Below, piece after piece: positions 4,286-46,361 of a DNA stretch of 64,000 bases; position 1 is the stretch's first letter; each line of letters opens with the position of its first letter. Under the pieces are notes generated by a model. The model was not told the DNA's origin, did not search any database, and saw only the letters and a list, made by a program, of their open reading frames with translations. The stretch is taken from NCBI GenBank assembly GCA_963663275.1, contig OY760183.1, forward strand, positions 1,632,001 to 1,696,000, given 5' to 3'. The stretch comes from Chloroflexota bacterium. Lineage in GTDB: Bacteria; Chloroflexota; UBA11872; VXOZ01. Made by a program: the position numbers and the translations under genes.

Positions 4286-5165
4286 AGCACCACTCTCCGC
4301 AGCAACCGCTGGAACACCACCTCTTCCAGCGGCCACGAGGTTTCCAGGCGCACGTAGCGCGCGTTGCGCCGCCCGCAGAAGGTCTCAAGCTGGTCCGCCC
4401 AGGCGAGGGCGTGCTCGCGGTACTGGTTCAGGGTTTCCGCGTCCGCGGCCACGTTGATGCTCCGGCCGGTTTCCCGGTCAACCAAGCTCAACTCGCCGCT
4501 CAGTTGCGGGTTGATCTCCGCCCAATCGAGCACGTGGAGCAGGACGAGTTCGTGTCCGGCCTCTTGAATGGCCGTGATGCCCCGGTAGGCGTCCTCGGTC
4601 ATCATGTCCGAAATCAGAATTACCAGGCCGCGCTGGGCGTTGCGGGCGGTGTAGTGGCGCATGGCCGCCACCAGGGAGGTGGCGCCGCCGACCGATTCCG
4701 CCTGCTCCAGAAAGTCGAAGTAGCGCAGGATGAAGGCGCGCCCCTGGGCCGGGGCGAAATACTGCTCGATCGTCTCGCTGAAGACCGCCGTGGAGAGCAC
4801 GTCGTCGCGGTTGAGCGCGATGTAACCCAGGCTGCCGGCCAGGGACTTGGCGTACCTGAATTTGTTCTGCCGTCCCCAATCCATCGAGCGGCTGCCGTCC
4901 ACCAGCACGTGCACGGCCAGGTGCTCTTCGGCTTCGCGCAGCTTGATATACAGGCGGTTGGAGCGGCCAAAGACGTTCCAGTCCACGTGGCGGAAGTCGT
5001 CGCCGGGGCTGTAGTTGCGGTAGTCGGCGAATTCGATCGAAGAGCCGAACTGGCGGCTGCGCCGCCCGCCGCCGCTGACCATGCCGTAGCCGCGCCGGCT
5101 GATCAGTTGCAGGCGATCCAGCCGCCGCAGGAAGGCGTGGTCGATCAGGGCCGAGGGACTCGGCT

Positions 5166-5169
<4 letters not shown>
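4282..5169 (-). CDS. DUF58 family protein
   Basis: EFADYRNYSPGDDFRHVDWN signature, DGSRSM, ISD; lies directly downstream of MoxR. Confidence 0.92.
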
Positions 5170-6163
<994 letters not shown>

Positions 6164-6167
<4 letters not shown>

Positions 6168-7876
6168 GGTGCTTGCTCCAGGGCGTTTGAGAGGGCGTTG
6201 AAGTACTGTTGGACGTAGTCGGCGACGGTCCAGGGCACGAAGTGGCTGGCGCCGCCGGTGGAGACGATGGCGTTGCCGGCGTCGGTCACGCCGAATTGTG
6301 CGGGCGCCGCGCCCGCGCCGGGCACGGCCACCGGCGCGCGCTGCGGCGACCAGCGCGACGGGCCGACGCCTCTATCCGCCAGCACCACCGAGGGCTTCTG
6401 TTCGACCTGCAAGCGCGGCGCTTCCGGGCCCGGCTGGAACGACTCCTCGCCGGTGTTGCCGCCGCCCTGGCTGGGGCCGCCGCCGGGGGCGGACTGGAGT
6501 TGCCAGGAGTCCTGCCGCCGCGACGGCCCGGACTGCTCCGTCACGCCGGCGGTATTGAAGGCTTGTTGCGATTGCGCGCTTTGCTGCTCTCCGCCCGTTT
6601 GCGCCCCCGCTTCCTCGCCGCCGGCGCCGGCGCGCAGTTGCTCCGCCTGCGCCTCGAGTTGCTGCTGCGTGCGGATGCGCTCGCCGCGCTCTTGAATGGC
6701 GTCACCAAGTTCCTGCAACTCACGCTGCGTCTCCCGGTCGTTGTAGGAAGCGACCTCGCGGCTCACGTCCGCCAGTTCCTGCGCCAGGCGCGGATCCACC
6801 GCCTCGGCGCGCTCGGCGGCTTTGGTGAAGGCTTCGGTCATGTCGTTGCGGTCCTCGCGGGAGAGGTCGCGCACGTTTTGCGCCAACTGTTCCAGGGCCT
6901 GCGCCGCCTGCTCGTAGTTGCCCTGTTGCAGGTTCTGCCCGGCGCTGCGGGAGGGCCGCGCCTGTGAGAGCTCGCGTCCTACCTCCGCCAGGGCGGTTTC
7001 CTGCTGGTTGACGTGGGGATTGCGCGCTTCCTCCAACTGTTGGGCAAGGTCGGATAGACCCGCCTCGCCTTGCCCGCGCTCACCGGACTCTTCCTCTTCC
7101 CCCGCCTGGCCTTGCTGCCCGGCGTTCTGTGGTTGCGTGCCGTCGGCCTGGGTCAGCAGGGGCTGGGTCTGCTCGGGTTGCGTCGGGTCCTGCGCCGCCG
7201 GTTCGGCAAGTTCCCCGGCGGCCGCCGGGCTCTGCGTCTCTTCTCCCACCACCAGCGCGTCGGGCGGCGTGGGTTCGAGCAGCGTGCCCTCGCGCGCGGC
7301 CGCCACCTGGTGCGCCAGGGGCGCGAGCGGCGCGAACTGGCCGGCCATGTAGGGGAAGATTTCCCAGAAGAAGAGCGCCGACAACGACACGAACAGCAGC
7401 AGCGTGTCCCACTGCGTCAGGCGCAAGGGGAACGCCCGCCTGGGTTCGATGTCCGCCGCGTGGCGCGTTGCGTCGGCCAGGAGCGCCGCGCGGAACGGGC
7501 TGGGGGGAGTAAGCCCCAGCACCTCGACCGCCGAGGCCAGGCGCTCGGACAAGGCCAGGCGGGCGTCGTAGGCTTTAGCGACGTCCAGCGCGCTCCGCCG
7601 CCGCAAGAGGGTGGGCGCGAGCACTACCGCGAAGACGCCGGCCGCCAGCAGCAGGCTGACGGAAAAGATGGGGAATTGCGGCGCGAGCAGCGAGCCGACC
7701 AACGAGAGGGATACGTAGAGCAGCGACGCTATCCACAACGCCCGCGCTCCCCGCAGCAGCACGGCGCGCAGCCGCAGCCGCCGGCCAAACCGCATAATGC
7801 GGTCTACGTACAAGGCCGCCGCGGCGTCGCCCTGCCCGGAGAGTTCAGCAGTTGCTGTGTTCGACGAGGTCGCCAC
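6164..7876 (-). CDS. Membrane protein with Q/E-rich coiled-coil C-terminus (MoxR operon partner)
   Basis: Three predicted TM segments, LSERLASAVE motif, long helical Q/E-rich region, C-terminal VP..YVQQYF; 4-nt overlap with moxR start. Confidence 0.75.
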
Positions 7877-8162
7877 GCTGATTGCCGCTTCCTAAGCCCC
7901 GGCGGCGACTTCACCGAAGAGGCCGACTTTACCGCGGGCGGCGGGTTCACCCATTGGCGGCTGCATGGATTCATTGCCCCCAGAACGCGGCGTCCGCGAC
8001 GCAATCCGGCAGCCCCCAGGCGCGCCCGCGCGCGCCAAACTCGTGTGGAAACGCAGCCTGCCCCCGGTCTGCTCCTTGCTACAATCTTACCTGACAGCCG
8101 CACACCCGTAAACGCAGCCGGAGTTATCGGCACGAGACGCGGCGCCTTTGCAGGGCTGCTCT

Positions 8163-8251
8163 GTCATTCCGAGCGCAGCGCAGCGGAGAGAGGAATCTAG
8201 CGCTCGCTGCCAGAACGTCGGTTCTAGATTCCTCGCTCCGCTCGGAATGAC
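8163..8251. repeat. GTCATTCC-family palindromic doublet (REP/REPIN-like)
   Basis: GTCATTCCGAGCG..AGGAATCT ... AGATTCCTCGCTCCGCTCGGAATGAC; copies recur at 16563, 21008, 34451, 41439. Confidence 0.9.
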
Positions 8252-8425
8252 ATGAAATCTAGTTGGAATGACGTGAAACCTAGCCCGATGGAGAGGTCAG
8301 CTCTGGATCTGCTTATTGCCAACGCGGCGGTGATTGAAGCGCCTGATACGCTATGCTACTATGGCACCCAAATACCCGCCTACCGTAGCAAGCGACTATT
8401 GCTGTGCCGATTGCAGGAGGACACG

Positions 8426-10387
<1,962 letters not shown>

Positions 10388-39293: not shown

Positions 39294-40286
39294 CTACCAA
39301 TAGGGGTTCTTGGTGTCTACCACGTCGGCATCGGTGATGCCGGACACGCGCCGGCAGACCTGGCGGGCCCGGTACACCTGATCGTGGTCCTGGAATTCCG
39401 CGCGGATCCTGGCTACGCCGCTCTCCGGGTCAACGCCCACGGATTCGAAGCGAATGCCGAAGAGGTATGAGTCGTCTTCCAAGACCTTCGCTAGGGCGAT
39501 GCTCTTGCGAAACCACGCGGCGCGTCCGGTGATCATGCCCAGGATGTGATTGTGGGCGATGTCCCAGTACATCCCAAAGAGGATGCCCGAAAAGAACCAC
39601 ACGGGAAACACGCTCACCGCGAGCGTCCAGCCGTTTTCCACCATGGTGCCAAGCGCGGCCATGAGACCTATGGGCACGCCGATGCCGGACAGGACCTGAT
39701 GGGGCCCGAAGTAGACGGAGACAATTGGCCCCAGGACTATGCGCCAGTAGATGTCGTGATTGGCCTGAAAGCGGCGCAGGATTCCCATCAGCAATCCCAG
39801 CACGCCCGCGCCGATGACGACGGGGGAGAGGTTCAAGATGAGCGCCACTATGGTCAAAAGGCTGCTAAGCAGCAATCTCAGGCTGAGGGGGTTTGTGCCC
39901 GGCTCCCCGGACCAGATTGTGAGCACTCCCACGGCGATGACGACGAGGATGATGATCCCAGCCGTGATTTCCAGAACTTTCAGCGTGCGCAGGCGCTCCC
40001 AAAAGCCGGACAGAATTACGAGCGGCGTGAGCACGATGGCAAAGAGCAACGCGCCCGCCATGAGCGCCACCATGAAGGAATTGAGAATGGGCCACAAGAC
40101 GACCGCAAGCCCGATCGGAATGATGAACGCCATGGGCGCGAGCGCGCCGGCAATGCCGCCGGAAAGCAGCGTTACCCGCAGGCCGGCGATCATCACCAAG
40201 GTGTCCGCTACCGTGGCGGAGATGATTTCGCGGCGCGAAAGGAATCGCGTGTCGTCGGAGCCGCCTAGGGTGTTTGGCTGTGCCAT
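39294..40286 (-). CDS. Uncharacterised multi-pass membrane protein with BON-like C-terminal domain (paralog B)
   Basis: About 7 hydrophobic segments; C-terminus ..VGVDPESGVARIRAEF..QVYRARQVCRRVSGITDA; similar to the upstream gene. Confidence 0.7.
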   Translation of the reverse strand: MAQPNTLGGSDDTRFLSRREIISATVADTLVMIAGLRVTLLSGGIAGALAPMAFIIPIGLAVVLWPILNSFMVALMAGALLFAIVLTPLVILSGFWERLRTLKVLEITAGIIILVVIAVGVLTIWSGEPGTNPLSLRLLLSSLLTIVALILNLSPVVIGAGVLGLLMGILRRFQANHDIYWRIVLGPIVSVYFGPHQVLSGIGVPIGLMAALGTMVENGWTLAVSVFPVWFFSGILFGMYWDIAHNHILGMITGRAAWFRKSIALAKVLEDDSYLFGIRFESVGVDPESGVARIRAEFQDHDQVYRARQVCRRVSGITDADVVDTKNPYW

Positions 40287-41158
40287 TAGATTACCAGGGA
40301 GCGATCGACCGCAGCGGTGTATTCGTCCCAGATGTCATCGCGCATCTCCCACGGCAGCATTTCCACCTCTACCGCGCGGATGCCGACGATGCGGCGCGCG
40401 ACCTGGCGCGTCCGCTTCACCTGCTCCGGCGTTTGGAACCAGCCCTGTATCCGCGCCGTGTGCCCGTCCGCGCTCACGGCCAGATCGGCAAAGATGCAGC
40501 CGAAGAGGTCGCTATCGTTGTGCAGGACGAACGAGAGGCTGAGGGTCCGGCGGAACCAGACTTCGGAACCGACCCACGACTGCATCATGCCCTGGAACCA
40601 CCCCTGCCAGTATTGGTCGTAGACCAGGCCGGAGAGCAGCCAGGGTATCAGGAGGTAGCCGACCATGAACGGCATCTCTTTCCAAAGTGCGAGCCCGAGG
40701 AAGAGCAGCGGCACGCCGATGATGCTGAGCAACAGGCCGGGCAGGGAATCCCAGGTGGAGCGCAACGGCACGGGCAGGAGGCTGCGCTCTACGCCCCGCA
40801 GGATGAGGCGCGCTTTGGCGGTGCCCAAGAGGCCGCCCGCCAGCAGGGCCGGCCACAGCGCCATGAGCATGGAAACCCAGCCGAAGGTGTGGGAAAGGGC
40901 GAGCGAGAAGACGCCGATGAGGTTGAAGGTGAAGAGCATCACCATGATCGGCCAGATGGCGATGAGGATCATGATGACGGCAAAGAGACCGGCAAAGACG
41001 CCCGCCCCGGCGATGAAACCGGCAATGAGCGGTATGCGCCGGTCGGCGACGAGCAGCATGGTCTCATGGGGTGTGCCGGTCGCCCACTCTTCGCGCCGGA
41101 GCGCCCGCGGCCGCGTCCAGCCGCTCGGGTCCCACCAAGGCCGCTGTGTGCTGCGCAT
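40286..41158 (-). CDS. Uncharacterised multi-pass membrane protein with BON-like C-terminal domain (paralog A)
   Basis: About 4-5 hydrophobic segments; C-terminus ..LAVSADGHTARIQGWF..QVKRTRQVARRIVGIRAV; TAATG overlap with paralog B. Confidence 0.7.
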   Translation of the reverse strand: MRSTQRPWWDPSGWTRPRALRREEWATGTPHETMLLVADRRIPLIAGFIAGAGVFAGLFAVIMILIAIWPIMVMLFTFNLIGVFSLALSHTFGWVSMLMALWPALLAGGLLGTAKARLILRGVERSLLPVPLRSTWDSLPGLLLSIIGVPLLFLGLALWKEMPFMVGYLLIPWLLSGLVYDQYWQGWFQGMMQSWVGSEVWFRRTLSLSFVLHNDSDLFGCIFADLAVSADGHTARIQGWFQTPEQVKRTRQVARRIVGIRAVEVEMLPWEMRDDIWDEYTAAVDRSLVI

Positions 41159-41530: not shown

Positions 41531-41669
41531 ACGTGAAGTCGGATATTGATTGCATACCTCAATCAGGTCTCCTGGGCGAGTGGGACGGGGTTAGGGGGGG
41601 ACTCCGGCGTTGGGGTGAAAGAGCGTGATGCGTGACTGTAATGATTGCGTTCCGTCAGGAGCGCGCGGT

Positions 41670-41845
41670 GCGCAGGTTACAAACCTACGCTACCGGAGGG
41701 AAGAGGCGAGTGCGCGCGTGCGCAGGTTACAAACCTGCGCTACCGGAGGGGAAGGGGCGAGTGCGCGCGCGCAGGTTGCAAACCTGCGCTACCGGAGGGC
41801 AAGCGGCGAGTACGGTGCGCGCAGGTTGCAAACCTGCGCTACCGG
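41670..41845. repeat. Four tandem ~50-bp units, each carrying a GTAG-type palindrome
   Basis: GCGCAGGTTRCAAACCTGCGCTACCGG at 41670, 41720, 41769, 41819, with near-identical linkers. Confidence 0.9.
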
Positions 41846-41889
41846 ACGGAGGGCGGTATGGACGTTTCGCGGCGGCGGGCGGGGCAAGG

Positions 41890-42702
41890 CTACGCCCGGT
41901 GGCGGAACATCCAGGTGGCCACCGGCAGGGCCACCGCGATGATGCCGACGCACCAGGCCAGCGCCAGCCAGCCGCTGTTGCCGATGGGCGTGCCGACCAT
42001 CCAGGCGCGCATGGCTTCGATGACCAGGGTTACGGGTTGGTTTTCGGCAAAGACGCGCAGCACGGTGGGCATGTTGGCCGTGGGCACGAAGGCGCTGCTG
42101 GCGAAGGTGAGCGGCATCAGCACCATGAACCCGGCCCACTGCGCAGCCTGCAGCGACTTGACAACCATGCCCAGTATGGCCGAAATCCAGGAAATCGCCA
42201 GGGTAAAGACCAGCAACAGGCCGAAGACCAGCAGCCACTCGGTGGCATCGGCGGTAGGGCGGAACCCGACGAGAAAGCTGGCCGCCAGCATGACCAGAGC
42301 CGAGATGGTGTTGCGCACCAGGTCGGCGATCACGTGCGCCGCCAGCAGCGCGGAACTGGCCATCGGCAGCGCCCGGAAGCGGTCCACAATCCCCCGTTGG
42401 AGATCGACCAAGACGCTGAAGGTGGTGGTGTTCGCGCCAAACGCCGCGGTCTGCACCAGAATGCCCGCGACGAGAAAATTGACATAACTCGTTTCACCGG
42501 TGTTGATCGCGCCGCCGAAAACGTAGCGAAAGAGCAGCAGGAACATCACCGGCATCATGAAGGTCGAGAACAACTGATCGATGTTGCGTGTGATGTGCGT
42601 CAGGCTGCGTTTCGTCAGCACCCAGTAGTTGTCGAGCATCCAGTAGATTTCCGGACGGCTTTGCGTTTCGGTTTCCGCCAGCAGAGATGCCGTTTGCTTC
42701 AT
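41890..42702 (-). CDS. ABC-2 type exporter permease (DrrB-like)
   Basis: MPVMFLLLFRYVFGGAI, GIVDRFRALPM, PLTFASSAFVP, NQPVT. Confidence 0.92.
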   Translation of the reverse strand: MKQTASLLAETETQSRPEIYWMLDNYWVLTKRSLTHITRNIDQLFSTFMMPVMFLLLFRYVFGGAINTGETSYVNFLVAGILVQTAAFGANTTTFSVLVDLQRGIVDRFRALPMASSALLAAHVIADLVRNTISALVMLAASFLVGFRPTADATEWLLVFGLLLVFTLAISWISAILGMVVKSLQAAQWAGFMVLMPLTFASSAFVPTANMPTVLRVFAENQPVTLVIEAMRAWMVGTPIGNSGWLALAWCVGIIAVALPVATWMFRHRA

Positions 42703-43727
42703 TGCGTCATCTTCTCCTGATCCTCTTCGCCGTTGTCGTTCGCCGGCGGCGTGGCCGCGGCCCCGGTGAGCGTGAGAAAGACGTCGTCCAACGTGGGGCG
42801 GTGCAGCGAGACGTCTTCCACCTCTACGCCGTCCTCTTCCAGGCGTTGCAGCGCCTCTCGCAGTTCGTGGACGCCCTCGTGGCTGGCGATGCTCAGCAGA
42901 CGCCGCTTGCTATCCAGATGCAGGGACTGGCCGGCCAGGGCACGCTCCGCCGCCGTCAGGTCGCTGCCGGCCGCGATGACGATGTCCAGCCGCGTGGCGC
43001 CGATTCGCGCCTTGAGTTCGTCGGACGTGCCGGCGGCAATGACGGAACCATGGTCGATGACAATGATTCTGTCCGCCAGTTGGTCGGCTTCCTCCATGTA
43101 CTGCGTGGTAAGCAGAATAGTAATGTCGCTGGCCGAGAGCCGCTTGATCATCTCCCAGAGCGCCAGGCGGCTGCGGGGGTCCAGCCCCGTCGTCGGCTCG
43201 TCCAGGAAGATCACCGGCGGCGAGGCGATGAGGCTCATGGCTATGTCCAGGCGGCGGCGCATCCCGCCCGAATAGGTACTCACCTGGCGGCGCGCCGCGT
43301 CGGTAAGCTCGAACAGTTCCAGCAGGTCGCGAGTGCGGCGTTTGGTGTCGGCCCGGCTCAGGCGGTAGAGCCGCCCCAGCATCAGCAGGTTCTCCTCGCC
43401 CGTGAGGTATTCGTCCACCGCCGCGTACTGGCCGGTAAGCCCAATGCTCTTGCGCACCCGGTCGGCCTCCCGCACCACGTCATGGCCGTTGACTGCGGCC
43501 CGTCCGCCGTCCGGCGGCAGCAGCGTGCTGAGGATGCGGATGATGGTGGTCTTGCCGGCCCCGTTCGGGCCCAGCAGCGCCAGGATGCTGCCGCGTTCCA
43601 CTGCCAGGTCGATGCCTTTCAGCACTTCCAGTTTCTTGAAAGACTTGCGCAGGCCCGTAAGGACAATTGCGTTCTGGTGGGCAGCGCCGGCGTCCGTTTT
43701 AGCAAGTGAAGTCAGGGTTTCCGTCAT
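42699..43727 (-). CDS. ABC exporter ATP-binding protein (DrrA-like)
   Basis: GPNGAGKTT, YSGGMRRRLD, FLDEPTTGLDP, TTQY; start moved to ATG 43727 (AGGAG RBS). Confidence 0.94.
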   Translation of the reverse strand: MTETLTSLAKTDAGAAHQNAIVLTGLRKSFKKLEVLKGIDLAVERGSILALLGPNGAGKTTIIRILSTLLPPDGGRAAVNGHDVVREADRVRKSIGLTGQYAAVDEYLTGEENLLMLGRLYRLSRADTKRRTRDLLELFELTDAARRQVSTYSGGMRRRLDIAMSLIASPPVIFLDEPTTGLDPRSRLALWEMIKRLSASDITILLTTQYMEEADQLADRIIVIDHGSVIAAGTSDELKARIGATRLDIVIAAGSDLTAAERALAGQSLHLDSKRRLLSIASHEGVHELREALQRLEEDGVEVEDVSLHRPTLDDVFLTLTGAAATPPANDNGEEDQEKMTQ

Positions 43728-43783
43728 TGCCTCTCCTTGTGGGATGGACTGTGCCGGTCGATGGGGTCCGCCGGGGGTCAGGT

Positions 43784-44326
43784 CTATTCCACGTCGTCCA
43801 CCGGCGGCTCGGCTGCCGGCTGGATCAGGGCGAGGGGCTGGCCGTACTCCACCGGCTGGCGCGATTCCACCAGAAAGCGTTCCAGGGTGCCGGCGATGGG
43901 CGCTTGGATCTCGTTGAGCACGTTCAGCACCTCGACGTAGCCGAGCAACTGCCCCTCGGCCACCGCCGCGCCTTCGTCGAGCACGGCGCGTTGTCCCTCG
44001 CCCCGGCTGCGGGAGAAAACCCCCACCCATCCCGCGTGCACCGTGTGCAGGCTTGGCTCACCGGCTGCCGCCGCGGCGGACGAGGCTGGAGATGTGGCCG
44101 CCGTTTCGCCGACGACTTCGGCCTGTGCCGTGCGCTTGAGGGCCACGCGCACGCCCTGGTGCTCCACGGCAAGTTCTTCAACGTCCGATTCGGCAATCAG
44201 GTCCAGGAGCGGGTGCAGCCACTCCCGCACCACTTGATCCAGCGTCTGCGCGGATTCCTTGCCGGACGCAGCCGGTTCTGGCGCGGATGACGTTTCCGGG
44301 ACGGCCTGTTCGCCTTGCTCAGTCAC
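43784..44326 (-). CDS. accB: AccB/BCCP-like biotinyl-domain protein lacking the biotinylated Lys
   Basis: BCCP layout (LLDLIAESDVEEL N-domain, Ala-rich linker, V.EGQLL..E....NEIQAP..G....V....PVEYGQPL) directly downstream of efp; EAMKM is replaced by EVLNV. Confidence 0.75.
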   Translation of the reverse strand: MTEQGEQAVPETSSAPEPAASGKESAQTLDQVVREWLHPLLDLIAESDVEELAVEHQGVRVALKRTAQAEVVGETAATSPASSAAAAAGEPSLHTVHAGWVGVFSRSRGEGQRAVLDEGAAVAEGQLLGYVEVLNVLNEIQAPIAGTLERFLVESRQPVEYGQPLALIQPAAEPPVDDVE

Positions 44327-44889
44327 TATGAACGCACCCGTTCGATGTAGCTGTTCGTGCGCGTGTCCACGCGAATTGTATCGCCCATGTTCACGAAGAG
44401 GGGCACGTTGACCACCAGGCCGGTTTCCAGGGTGGCCGGTTTCGTGCCGCCGGCCGCGGTGTCGCCCTTAACGCCGGGCGCGGTATCCGCGATTTCGAGT
44501 TCGATGGAAGGCGGCAGGGCGACGTCCAGGACGCGCTCGCCGTGCATCTCCAGCTCGATGGTGGCGCCGTCTCTGAGGAAGTGCGCGGCATTGCCCAGCA
44601 GCGCGCCGTCCACCAGAATTTCGTCGTAGGATTCCGTATCCATGAAGTGGAAGACGTCGCCGTCCTGGTAGAGGAACTGGGCCGGGCGCTGCTCCAGCCG
44701 GATCTGGCGGAAGCGCGCGCCGGCGTCGCAGGTGCGGTCGATGATGTGGCCTTCCTGCACGTTGCGCAGCTTGAGCCGCACCACCGCGCCGCCGCGTCCC
44801 ATCTTGATGTGCTTCACTTCTTCCAGGCGGAAGATGGCGTCCTCGTATTCGATGACGACCCCTCGTCGTAGGTTACCTGTGTCGATCAA
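44326..44889 (-). CDS. efp: Elongation factor P
   Basis: HIKMGRGGAVVRLKL, QFLY, FMDTESY, PGVKGDT, KPATLETG, VPLFVN..VDTR..YIER; TTG start with AGGAGG RBS. Confidence 0.96.
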   Translation of the reverse strand: MIDTGNLRRGVVIEYEDAIFRLEEVKHIKMGRGGAVVRLKLRNVQEGHIIDRTCDAGARFRQIRLEQRPAQFLYQDGDVFHFMDTESYDEILVDGALLGNAAHFLRDGATIELEMHGERVLDVALPPSIELEIADTAPGVKGDTAAGGTKPATLETGLVVNVPLFVNMGDTIRVDTRTNSYIERVRS

Positions 44890-45209: not shown

Positions 45210-46304
45210 TCATCCTGAGAATCGCAGTTTCGGCGAGCCGGTGAGGATTTCGGCGCCGTCGTCGTGGAGCAGCGCCAGGTCCTCGATGCGCACGCCGCCT
45301 ACGCCGGGCAGGTAGATGCCGGGTTCGATTGAAAACACGGCCCCGGCCGGCAGCGGCGTATCGCCGGCCAGCGGCGAGAGGCGCGGGGCTTCATGGATTT
45401 CCAGGCCCACGCCGTGCCCCAGGCCGTGGCCGAAGTGGTCGAGATGCCCGGCGGCTTCGATAACGTCACGGGCGAGCGCGTCGGCCTCCACGCCGGTCAT
45501 GCCGGCGCGCACCTGCGCCGCGGCGGTTTCCTGCGCTTGCAAGACCACGCCGTAGATTTCCCGCATCTCCGCCGGCGGCGTGCCGAGGACGACGGTGCGG
45601 GTCATGTCCGAGCAGTAGCCGTCGGCAACGCAGCCAAAGTCCATGACGATGAAGGCATCGCGGGGAATGGTGTCGTCGCCGGGCCGGTGGTGGGGCATGG
45701 CGGCGTTGGGTCCGGCCGCGACGATGGACGGAAACGAAAGCCCTTCCGCCCCGGCTTCCCGCATCAGCACCTCCAAGCGCCAGGCCACCGCCCGCTCGGT
45801 CACGCCGGGGCGCAGCCACGCCAGCAGTTCGGCCAGGGCGTTGTCCGCGATGGCGATGGCGCGCCGGAGAGCGGCCACTTCATCCGGCCCTTTGGCCACG
45901 CGGAGTTTCTCCACCACGCCTTTGGTTCCGATCAGGTCAACCTCACCGGACAGGCTCTCGCCATAGGAATCATGGTTCGCCACGCTCACGTGCTCGCTCT
46001 CGAACGCCATCCGCCGGACGCCGTGCTGCCGGCAGAGGTCCAGCAGCGCCGGGCCGAGCGCGCCGGTGAGCGGCACAACCGTGAAGCCTGCCGCTTGCTT
46101 GCCCGCTTGCTCGGTGTAGCGGGAGTCGGTGATGAGCAGCGCGGCGGCGGCGCAGAGCAGCAGCCAGCCGGACGAGCCGGTGAAGCCGGAGAGGTAGCGG
46201 CGGTTGTAGTCGTTGCTCACCAGGAGCGCGTCCGCTTCCAACTCGTCGAGCCGGTCGCGCACGTTTTGCACCCTGGGAGCGGTAGCAGTTTGTGTGGTAC
46301 TCAT
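45210..46304 (-). CDS. Xaa-Pro aminopeptidase (M24 family)
   Basis: YLSGFTGS, DSRY, PHH, DFG..GYCSDMTRT, HGLGHGVGLEIHE, IEPGIY..GGVRIED. Confidence 0.94.
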   Translation of the reverse strand: MSTTQTATAPRVQNVRDRLDELEADALLVSNDYNRRYLSGFTGSSGWLLLCAAAALLITDSRYTEQAGKQAAGFTVVPLTGALGPALLDLCRQHGVRRMAFESEHVSVANHDSYGESLSGEVDLIGTKGVVEKLRVAKGPDEVAALRRAIAIADNALAELLAWLRPGVTERAVAWRLEVLMREAGAEGLSFPSIVAAGPNAAMPHHRPGDDTIPRDAFIVMDFGCVADGYCSDMTRTVVLGTPPAEMREIYGVVLQAQETAAAQVRAGMTGVEADALARDVIEAAGHLDHFGHGLGHGVGLEIHEAPRLSPLAGDTPLPAGAVFSIEPGIYLPGVGGVRIEDLALLHDDGAEILTGSPKLRFSG

Positions 46305-46361
46305 GTGTGTAAATGCGGTCGGATCTACGGAGTGTATATATCCAATTGTAGCACGCAATGG

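Follow-up and report, generated by a model that had tools for sequence, protein, structure and literature searches.

A lysine-less biotin carboxyl carrier protein paralog, linked to efp and conserved in Chloroflexota, as a candidate BADC-like subunit of acetyl-CoA carboxylase

Non-catalytic BCCP (biotin carboxyl carrier protein) look-alikes have been regarded as a plant speciality. In the available text of two papers, the plant BADC proteins are described as non-catalytic subunits that bind both biotin carboxylase (BC) and BCCP, and they are termed both inhibitors and assembly "glue" (PMC11926652, PMC12706156); the available text of the first also calls them "unique to the plant htACCase" (PMC11926652). 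For the E. coli enzyme, the accessible part of one report gives BCCP residues 1 to 30 as an alpha/beta/beta motif that was proposed to oligomerise BCCP inside acetyl-CoA carboxylase (ACC) tubes (PMC11160672), and in the accessible part of another the 4HR7 structure is described as having BCCP bound to BC at a helix of residues 64 to 73 (bioRxiv 10.64898/2025.12.30.697075). A regulator of a different kind is MSMEG_0435-0436, a KipA/KipI homolog that sequesters biotin (PMC13012033). A full-text literature search returned no description of a bacterial BCCP that lacks the lysine.

The window analysed here is a stretch of 64,000 nucleotides from a Chloroflexota genome assembled as one contig (3.53 Mb, 99.57% complete). 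It contains a gene, here named bccpL, whose features are collected with those of its neighbours in Table 1. The GTG start of bccpL and the TAG stop of efp have base 44326 in common, a one-base overlap. Residues 132 to 140 read EVLNVLNEI, with EVLNV encoded as GAG GTG CTG AAC GTG, and in a profile alignment Asn135 was matched to the K of E. coli vEAMKMMNQI. The SPMVGTF motif is changed to AGWVGVF, and NEI, G and PVEYGQPL are retained. Reading of the ORF and its codons thus bore out what the sequence-only reading had noticed at this gene, namely the BCCP architecture, the stop/start overlap with efp, the Asn codon, the AGWVG change and the residues that were kept. Past residue 64 the translation is free of lysine; its only lysines, at residues 23 and 64, were not conserved among relatives. 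The protein matched the Pfam Biotin_lipoyl domain (PF00364) at 29.9 bits, over the cut-off of 22.1, and the BCCP family TIGR00531 at 76.6 bits (69.1 bits in a six-frame search), which falls short of the curated cut-off of 115.2. Because Asn stands at the lysine position and there is no other lysine in the domain, bccpL is predicted to be unable to carry biotin. Since the defining lysine is absent and the score lies under the curated cut-off, it falls outside the functional BCCP family.

Table 1. Features of the bccpL locus in window coordinates, followed by bccpL residues compared between lysine-less rows and fabF-linked AccBs
Feature	Coordinates	Strand	Basis
ABC-2 permease (DrrB-like), partner of the DrrA-type ATPase	41890..42702	-	Pfam ABC2_membrane 103.5 bits
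DrrA-type ABC ATPase, downstream of bccpL	42699..43736	-	TIGR01188 365.5 bits, cut-off 312.45
bccpL, lysine-less BCCP paralog, 180 aa	43784..44326	-	Intact ORF and translation
Acidic C-terminal tail PAAEPPVDDVE and stop codon of bccpL	43784..43816	-	Genus-specific
Biotinyl-domain fold without modifiable lysine, residues 93-170	43817..44050	-	AF2, Foldseek
Asn135 codon AAC (gtt on the + strand), site of the biotinyl lysine	43922..43924	-	Codon read
Ala/Ser/Pro-rich flexible linker, residues 65-92	44051..44134	-	AF2 pLDDT, relatives' alignment
N-terminal helix and beta-hairpin, residues 22-64	44135..44263	-	AF2 model, alignments
efp (elongation factor P), directly upstream of bccpL	44326..44889	-	TIGR00038 218.4 bits, cut-off 185.8
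pepP, Xaa-Pro aminopeptidase-like M24 peptidase, first in pepP-efp-bccpL	45210..46358	-	Peptidase_M24 234.4 bits, Creatinase_N 95.8 bits (Pfam)
bccpL position 101			V in 24/24 lysine-less rows; A, N or T (V in 0/13) in fabF-linked AccBs
bccpL position 158			P in 20/24 lysine-less rows; P in 0/13 fabF-linked AccBs
bccpL position 160			E in 22/24 lysine-less rows; E in 0/13 fabF-linked AccBs
bccpL position 161			Y in 22/24 and F in 2/24 lysine-less rows; Y/F in 0/13 fabF-linked AccBs

The AlphaFold2 (AF2) model of bccpL, computed from an 18-row alignment (mean pLDDT 81), begins with a helix at residues 22 to 46 and strands at 51 to 56 and 59 to 64 (pLDDT about 84). It continues through a linker that is disordered in the model at residues 68 to 87 (pLDDT below 50) and variable in length and sequence among relatives, and it ends in a barrel at residues 94 to 170 with a pLDDT of 94 to 98. 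The N-terminus was alignable to the N-terminal part of E. coli BCCP and of canonical AccBs, and as modelled its helix-strand-strand arrangement would correspond to the alpha/beta/beta oligomerisation motif of E. coli BCCP. The top Foldseek matches of the model were E. coli BCCP domains, with a TM of 0.94 by target length to 1bdo and a TM of 0.95 with an rmsd of 0.7 Å to 4hr7_G. The family profile matched full-length E. coli BCCP (4hr7_B) with an E value of 5e-30, covering both its N- and C-terminal parts, and the E. coli thumb segment aligned to this profile ungapped, so that a thumb-length segment is present in the family. The acidic tail, which ends in DDVE (...PxPExxxDDVE), was found in 16/16 copies from the genus and was missing in other families; it may be a short docking peptide.

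A canonical accB, accC and birA, for which the sequence-only reading had proposed to look, are all present elsewhere in the genome. A six-frame search with TIGR00531 identified three places, these being bccpL itself, an AccB directly after fabF, and a biotinyl domain that ends a second biotin carboxylase. The fabF-linked AccB (L001 1318..1794) has 158 aa and the canonical motif EAMKVFNEV. The stand-alone AccC, which scored 651.4 bits with TIGR00514 and so passed the cut-off, is encoded about 877 kb from bccpL, where its gene adjoins nusB with a fabG-like reductase nearby, and BirA was matched at 140.9 bits. The second biotin carboxylase, a fused BC-BCCP scoring 581.8 bits with TIGR00514, lies outside the window (G000:C1:3468838-3470735) and has a C-terminal biotinyl domain like that of BC1 of Chloroflexus; the source genome was alone among 17 of its genus in having it (E ≤ 1e-60). 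A complete conventional carrier system is therefore present, to which the efp-linked gene adds a paralog that lacks the lysine.

In a protein search of the same class that included the source genome, a match was found in 60 of 61 genomes; the single genome without one is 69% complete, and nearly all others had two matches. All 30 efp-linked copies that were first read lack the lysine (N in the 16 genus genomes, G or S elsewhere). Eight more, including copies of family f4, read D, N or G, which brings the count to 38 of 38 lysine-less copies across six families, all with an intact reading frame. These eight came from ten regions that were fetched as extra sampling, the other two being a fabF-linked copy and a region with efp and pepP but no BCCP match by tblastn. 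Across relatives the residue at the lysine position was N, G, S, R or D. Within the genus, 15 further genomes have the lysine-less motif, and three proteins from other assemblies (P0001-P0003), 89 to 96% identical, share it. The second match was fetched from 20 relatives and in 20/20 proved to be a fabF-linked AccB with EAMK(V/T)FNE. The median pairwise dN/dS was 0.14 for bccpL (58 pairs), 0.25 for the fabF-linked accB (76 pairs) and 0.05 for efp (65 pairs), as computed by the Nei-Gojobori method (NG86) over 13 genus genomes from pairs with a dS of 0.05 to 1.5, which are non-independent and in many cases of high dS. By this measure the constraint on bccpL is no weaker than that on the true carrier.

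These data bear directly on whether bccpL might be a decaying accB relic, an assembly or sequencing error, or a carrier that uses another attachment site. Its score below the curated BCCP cut-off and the functional accB elsewhere in the genome would both suit a relic. However, the frame is intact in 38/38 relatives' copies, the dN/dS is lower than that of the true accB, and the barrel was modelled at a pLDDT above 94, while the identical motif in independent assemblies argues against an error and the absence of any lysine after residue 64, with lysines 23 and 64 unconserved, argues against another attachment site. We therefore consider this group of explanations very improbable, and a sequencing error or pseudogene is ruled out by the independent assemblies, the uniformly lysine-less copies and the selection on them. 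The sequence-only reading had itself raised the case that close orthologs keep the MK and that this allele shows relaxed selection or a sequencing error; the orthologs and the dN/dS gave the opposite result.

In a scan of one genome per species, 80 loci were kept, of which 24 were lysine-less and 56 had the K. The lysine-less loci were directly after efp in 21 of 24 cases and were all from Chloroflexota, including a Ktedonobacter MAG, with the sole exception of a Riflebacteria contig (L083); accC was downstream in just two of them, L083 and an Anaerolineaceae MAG contig (L109). In the Ktedonobacter MAG, and likewise in one other MAG, a lysine-less efp-linked copy is accompanied by a fabF-linked EAMKVFNEI copy. 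In Herpetosiphon the efp-linked copy retains the K and is the only stand-alone BCCP, alongside one fused form. When 1.84 billion representatives were searched with a lysine-less profile, 30,483 matches were obtained at E ≤ 0.001. Among 226 aligned domains (the best 150 representatives, 65 protein-search matches and the query, with some close copies and extra domains of longer proteins), the lysine position was K in 107, and the remaining 119 had a gap or a different residue there (N 49, G 35, R 13, Q 7, D 5, S 3, others 7); since the representatives were ranked by the lysine-less profile, these numbers indicate a large and diverse family rather than its share of all BCCPs.

On a quick IQ-TREE phylogeny of 102 BCCP rows the K/no-K label has to change twice, once for the Chloroflexota set and once for Riflebacteria. 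When the hairpin columns were left out, the 31 lysine-less Chloroflexota rows still fell on one side of a branch, at an SH-aLRT of 77.8, which is not strong. The fabF-linked canonical AccBs of the class formed their own clade (support 99), as did the K-keeping Chloroflexia copies (95), and the lysine-less rows were placed beside Chloroflexota BCCPs in this tree, which contains no plant sequences. The data fit a single old loss of the lysine after duplication, for which so short an alignment is no proof.

The Riflebacteria contig carries, at L083 389-2086, a lysine-less accB (VESMNLKYEI) directly upstream of accC, and it is apparently independent of the Chloroflexota set. The accC match there is in two pieces (831-1667 and 1673-2086), and a frameshift is possible.

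The gene order around bccpL was then compared with that of other species. No accC follows bccpL, the next genes downstream being those of the DrrA-type ATPase and the ABC-2 permease, in agreement with the sequence-only reading, and profile matches confirmed both assignments. On the DrrAB exporter as a neighbour, that reading needs a correction. The gap between bccpL and drrA is 47 bases (43737-43783) in the source genome and about 1 kb in genus relatives, where another gene lies in between (a 222-aa ORF in L039, 7565..8233), and no drrA was found downstream in other families; the direct adjacency is therefore specific to the source genome, and DrrAB was rejected as a functional partner of bccpL and is regarded as incidental. 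No intrinsic terminator or sigma-70-like promoter was found in the gaps between pepP, efp, bccpL and drrAB. Terminator-like sites numbered 4 against 3.6 expected, none of them in the intergenic gaps of pepP-efp-bccpL-drrAB.

Two further features were observed beyond the exporter genes. Just downstream of the permease gene, at 41654-41851 of the window, are four tandem copies of a unit of about 50 nt, each containing the palindrome GCGCAGGTT(A/G)CAAACCTGCGC; these repeats look like a REP-like or terminator-like hairpin array. Beyond them, at 39294-41158 on the minus strand, lie neighbouring genes for two multi-pass membrane proteins, 330 and 290 aa long, whose C-terminal soluble ends are similar; they are probable tandem paralogs.

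In the relatives, efp was directly upstream of the lysine-less gene in 29 of 30 loci, the 30th beginning at a contig end, and pepP was upstream of efp in 27/30. No accC was found within the 1.5-kb flanks of any of the 30 loci, and in 30/30 loci of relatives accC adjoins nusB. An efp-linked accB that retains the K was observed in loci from Herpetosiphon, cyanobacteria, Nitrospirota and Hydrogenedentota. The Hydrogenedentota order is pepP-efp-accB-accC, and Firmicute loci have the order accB-accC...nusB. By this comparison of gene orders, the efp-accB linkage appears ancestral. From the Firmicute order, taken with efp-accB elsewhere, it would follow that the class split an old pepP-efp-accB-accC-nusB cluster between accB and accC. 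In the history that we propose, bccpL descends by position from the efp-linked accB of the ancestor. The task of carrying biotin would have passed, in an old lineage of Chloroflexota, to a second accB linked to fabF; accC would have moved away to its present place next to nusB, and the lysine would have been lost from the efp-linked copy.

This history is relevant to the suggestion that the domain was repurposed outside ACC, whether in EF-P function or translation, as a transcriptional autoregulator like N-terminal E. coli AccB, or as a docking module for another enzyme or PII. The pepP-efp-bccpL order with its stop/start overlap in 29/30 loci, from which accC has departed, would be expected of such a role, as would the absence of any acc gene from the flanks read within the class. 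Nevertheless, the efp-accB pairing appears to be ancestral and also occurs with lysine-bearing accB, so that the linkage is no evidence of a new role; and since it would be inherited, there is no reason to assume an EF-P-related function for bccpL. A search for an EpmA-type EF-P modification enzyme gave nothing over the cut-off, its matches being frames of 522 and 605 aa which we take to be tRNA synthetases, and a search for EarP was uninformative, as its control was silent (no match in any control genome). In addition, the invariant residues of bccpL are those of a predicted AccC interface, and one ortholog lies inside an acc operon, both described below. Repurposing outside ACC thus appears unlikely.

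The ortholog in question is on L109, where the order is accD (4955..5878), accA (5784..6920), the lysine-less BCCP gene (6917..7420), accC (7427..8794) and then fabZ. Its motif is HVDVLGVRHEV, and further along the contig are fabF and a canonical accB (IEAMKLFNEI). The L109 protein was placed within the efp-linked lysine-less clade (support 92), on a long branch.

Structure prediction with AccC, a comparison that the sequence-only reading had suggested, gave a complex that passed its controls. The model of AccC with bccpL, computed from alignments of 13 and 18 rows, respectively, had an ipSAE of 0.71 (0.71, 0.74 and 0.71 in the runs) vs 0.00 for the best of three controls; of 157 solved complexes, 116 come up to the mark applied to this score, as do 2 of 215 mismatched pairs. 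The pLDDT of the partners was at least 64, and the runs shared at least 41% of contacts. The contacts were at residues 34, 49-53, 59, 64-69, 71-73 and 98 of AccC and at residues 99-103, 133-134, 136, 158 and 160-163 of bccpL. Those at AccC 64-69 and 71-73 coincide with the helix of residues 64 to 73 in 4HR7, and the model therefore reproduces, as a prediction, the known non-catalytic BCCP docking site. Because 4HR7 was already solved, the pass may reflect memory of that structure; the model speaks for a BCCP-like surface, that is, for likeness rather than binding.

To examine this surface, 24 distinct lysine-less Chloroflexota rows were compared with 13 fabF-linked biotinylatable AccBs of the same lineages (Table 1, positions 101 to 161). 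At the matching sites E. coli BCCP has MVGTF and PVEFDE. The motif is also kept in 57 other canonical rows, but these had been fetched by a peptide pattern of the motif, so that the E. coli alignment is the sole unbiased comparison. The lysine-less copy thus appears to have kept the ancestral docking motif and the biotinylated carrier to have lost it, and this split between the paralogs argues against simple competition for one site and favours a division of labour, in which docking would fall to one paralog and carrying to the other. Folding rather than docking could, however, be what keeps VGxF and PVEYGQ conserved.

The comparison also bears on the original BADC model, in which bccpL would be a pure competitive inhibitor that vies with holo-AccB for the biotin carboxylase site and acts as a dose-dependent brake on fatty-acid synthesis. 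The fold and N-terminal motif common to bccpL and AccB, and the predicted position of bccpL at the BCCP site of AccC, are compatible with such a brake, and in the available text of both papers the initial description of plant BADCs is that of negative regulators (PMC11926652, PMC12706156). However, in 13/13 rows the biotinylated paralog is without V101, P158, E160 and Y161, and the two proteins would therefore not be competitors for one identical interface. The translational coupling to the highly expressed efp also suggests a constitutive rather than a regulated supply, and the later plant literature, in the accessible text of one paper, favours an assembly role (PMC11926652). Pure inhibition is thus quite unlikely.

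We therefore favour, at a rough probability of 0.6, the reading that bccpL is a non-catalytic, BADC-like ACC subunit, an anchor or modulator. It would retain the alpha/beta/beta motif for oligomerisation, the linker with its flexibility and the fold of the biotinyl domain, together with a surface (VGxF, the hairpin flanks and PVEYGQ) for the non-catalytic site of biotin carboxylase at helix 64-73. Through this surface bccpL would sit on AccC, and through its N-terminus it would co-assemble with the biotinylated AccB. It might then act as an anchoring or "glue" subunit, or modulate the number of carrier domains held by ACC, in either case functionally like the plant BADC proteins. Activation, anchoring and inhibition by bccpL are not distinguishable from its sequence. 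Counting against an ACC role is that bccpL lies beside no acc gene in the source genome and nearly all relatives and stays with pepP-efp.

In a separate observation, the 4.3-Mb Chloroflexota MAG G062 (the genome of L056) yielded only a lysine-less BCCP at E ≤ 1e-5, and no lysine-bearing carrier, stand-alone or fused, was found in it at that threshold. A lysine-less copy alone is hard to reconcile with a partner role, except if the search missed a fused carrier or parts of the genome are lacking from the MAG.

A more specific form of the anchor reading, which we hold only tentatively, is that many Chloroflexota have a two-BCCP ACC, in which the lysine-less paralog would be a permanent anchor on helix 64-73 and the fabF-linked AccB would be held only via hetero-oligomerisation with this anchor. 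If true, bacteria would have evolved, independently, a counterpart of the plant BADC "glue", and the function of the non-catalytic BCCP site that E. coli 4HR7 and the ACC tubes display would be separable onto a subunit of its own. An old, large and selectively maintained bacterial family would also offer a simple test system, with one BC, one carrier and one lysine-less paralog, all small proteins, and would help to show the purpose of the non-catalytic BCCP docking site on biotin carboxylase. A practical consequence concerns annotation: source databases label the lysine-less proteins as carriers ("biotin carboxyl carrier protein" for P0017 and P0024), so that the gene taken for accB when the metabolism of Chloroflexota MAGs is reconstructed may be the wrong one.

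Among known systems, bccpL is most readily compared with AccB/BCCP itself (TIGR00531; 1BDO, 4HR7), with which it shares the domain order of helix-hairpin, Ala/Pro-rich linker and biotinyl barrel with a thumb-length segment, the VGxF and PVE(Y/F) motifs, and the ancestral position after efp. It differs in having EVLNV instead of EAMKM, a score under the cut-off and no accC after it, and in the presence of a separate biotinylatable AccB in the genome. The ACC of Chloroflexus aurantiacus, with a fused BC-BCCP (BC1) and a separate BC2/BCCP (PMC11077971), is from the same phylum, and the source genome likewise has a stand-alone AccC and a BC with a C-terminal biotinyl domain. In contrast to bccpL, all carriers studied there have EAMKM and are biotinylated, and the available text mentions no lysine-less paralog (PMC11077971). 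The closest likeness in proposed function is to plant BADC1-3, which are also BCCP homologs without the biotinylation motif that coexist with true BCCPs, as bccpL does (20/20 relatives fetched have a canonical AccB). Unlike the BADCs, the bccpL family belongs to bacteria, its origin within Chloroflexota is separate as judged from a tree lacking plant sequences, and its binding is predicted here. Of the earlier suggestion of a BADC-like regulator or scaffold, or a repurposed domain, the BADC-like part has thus gained support from conservation, selection, the AccC model and the L109 context, with no BADC ancestry implied; "BADC-like" is meant here, by analogy, as the way in which bccpL probably works.
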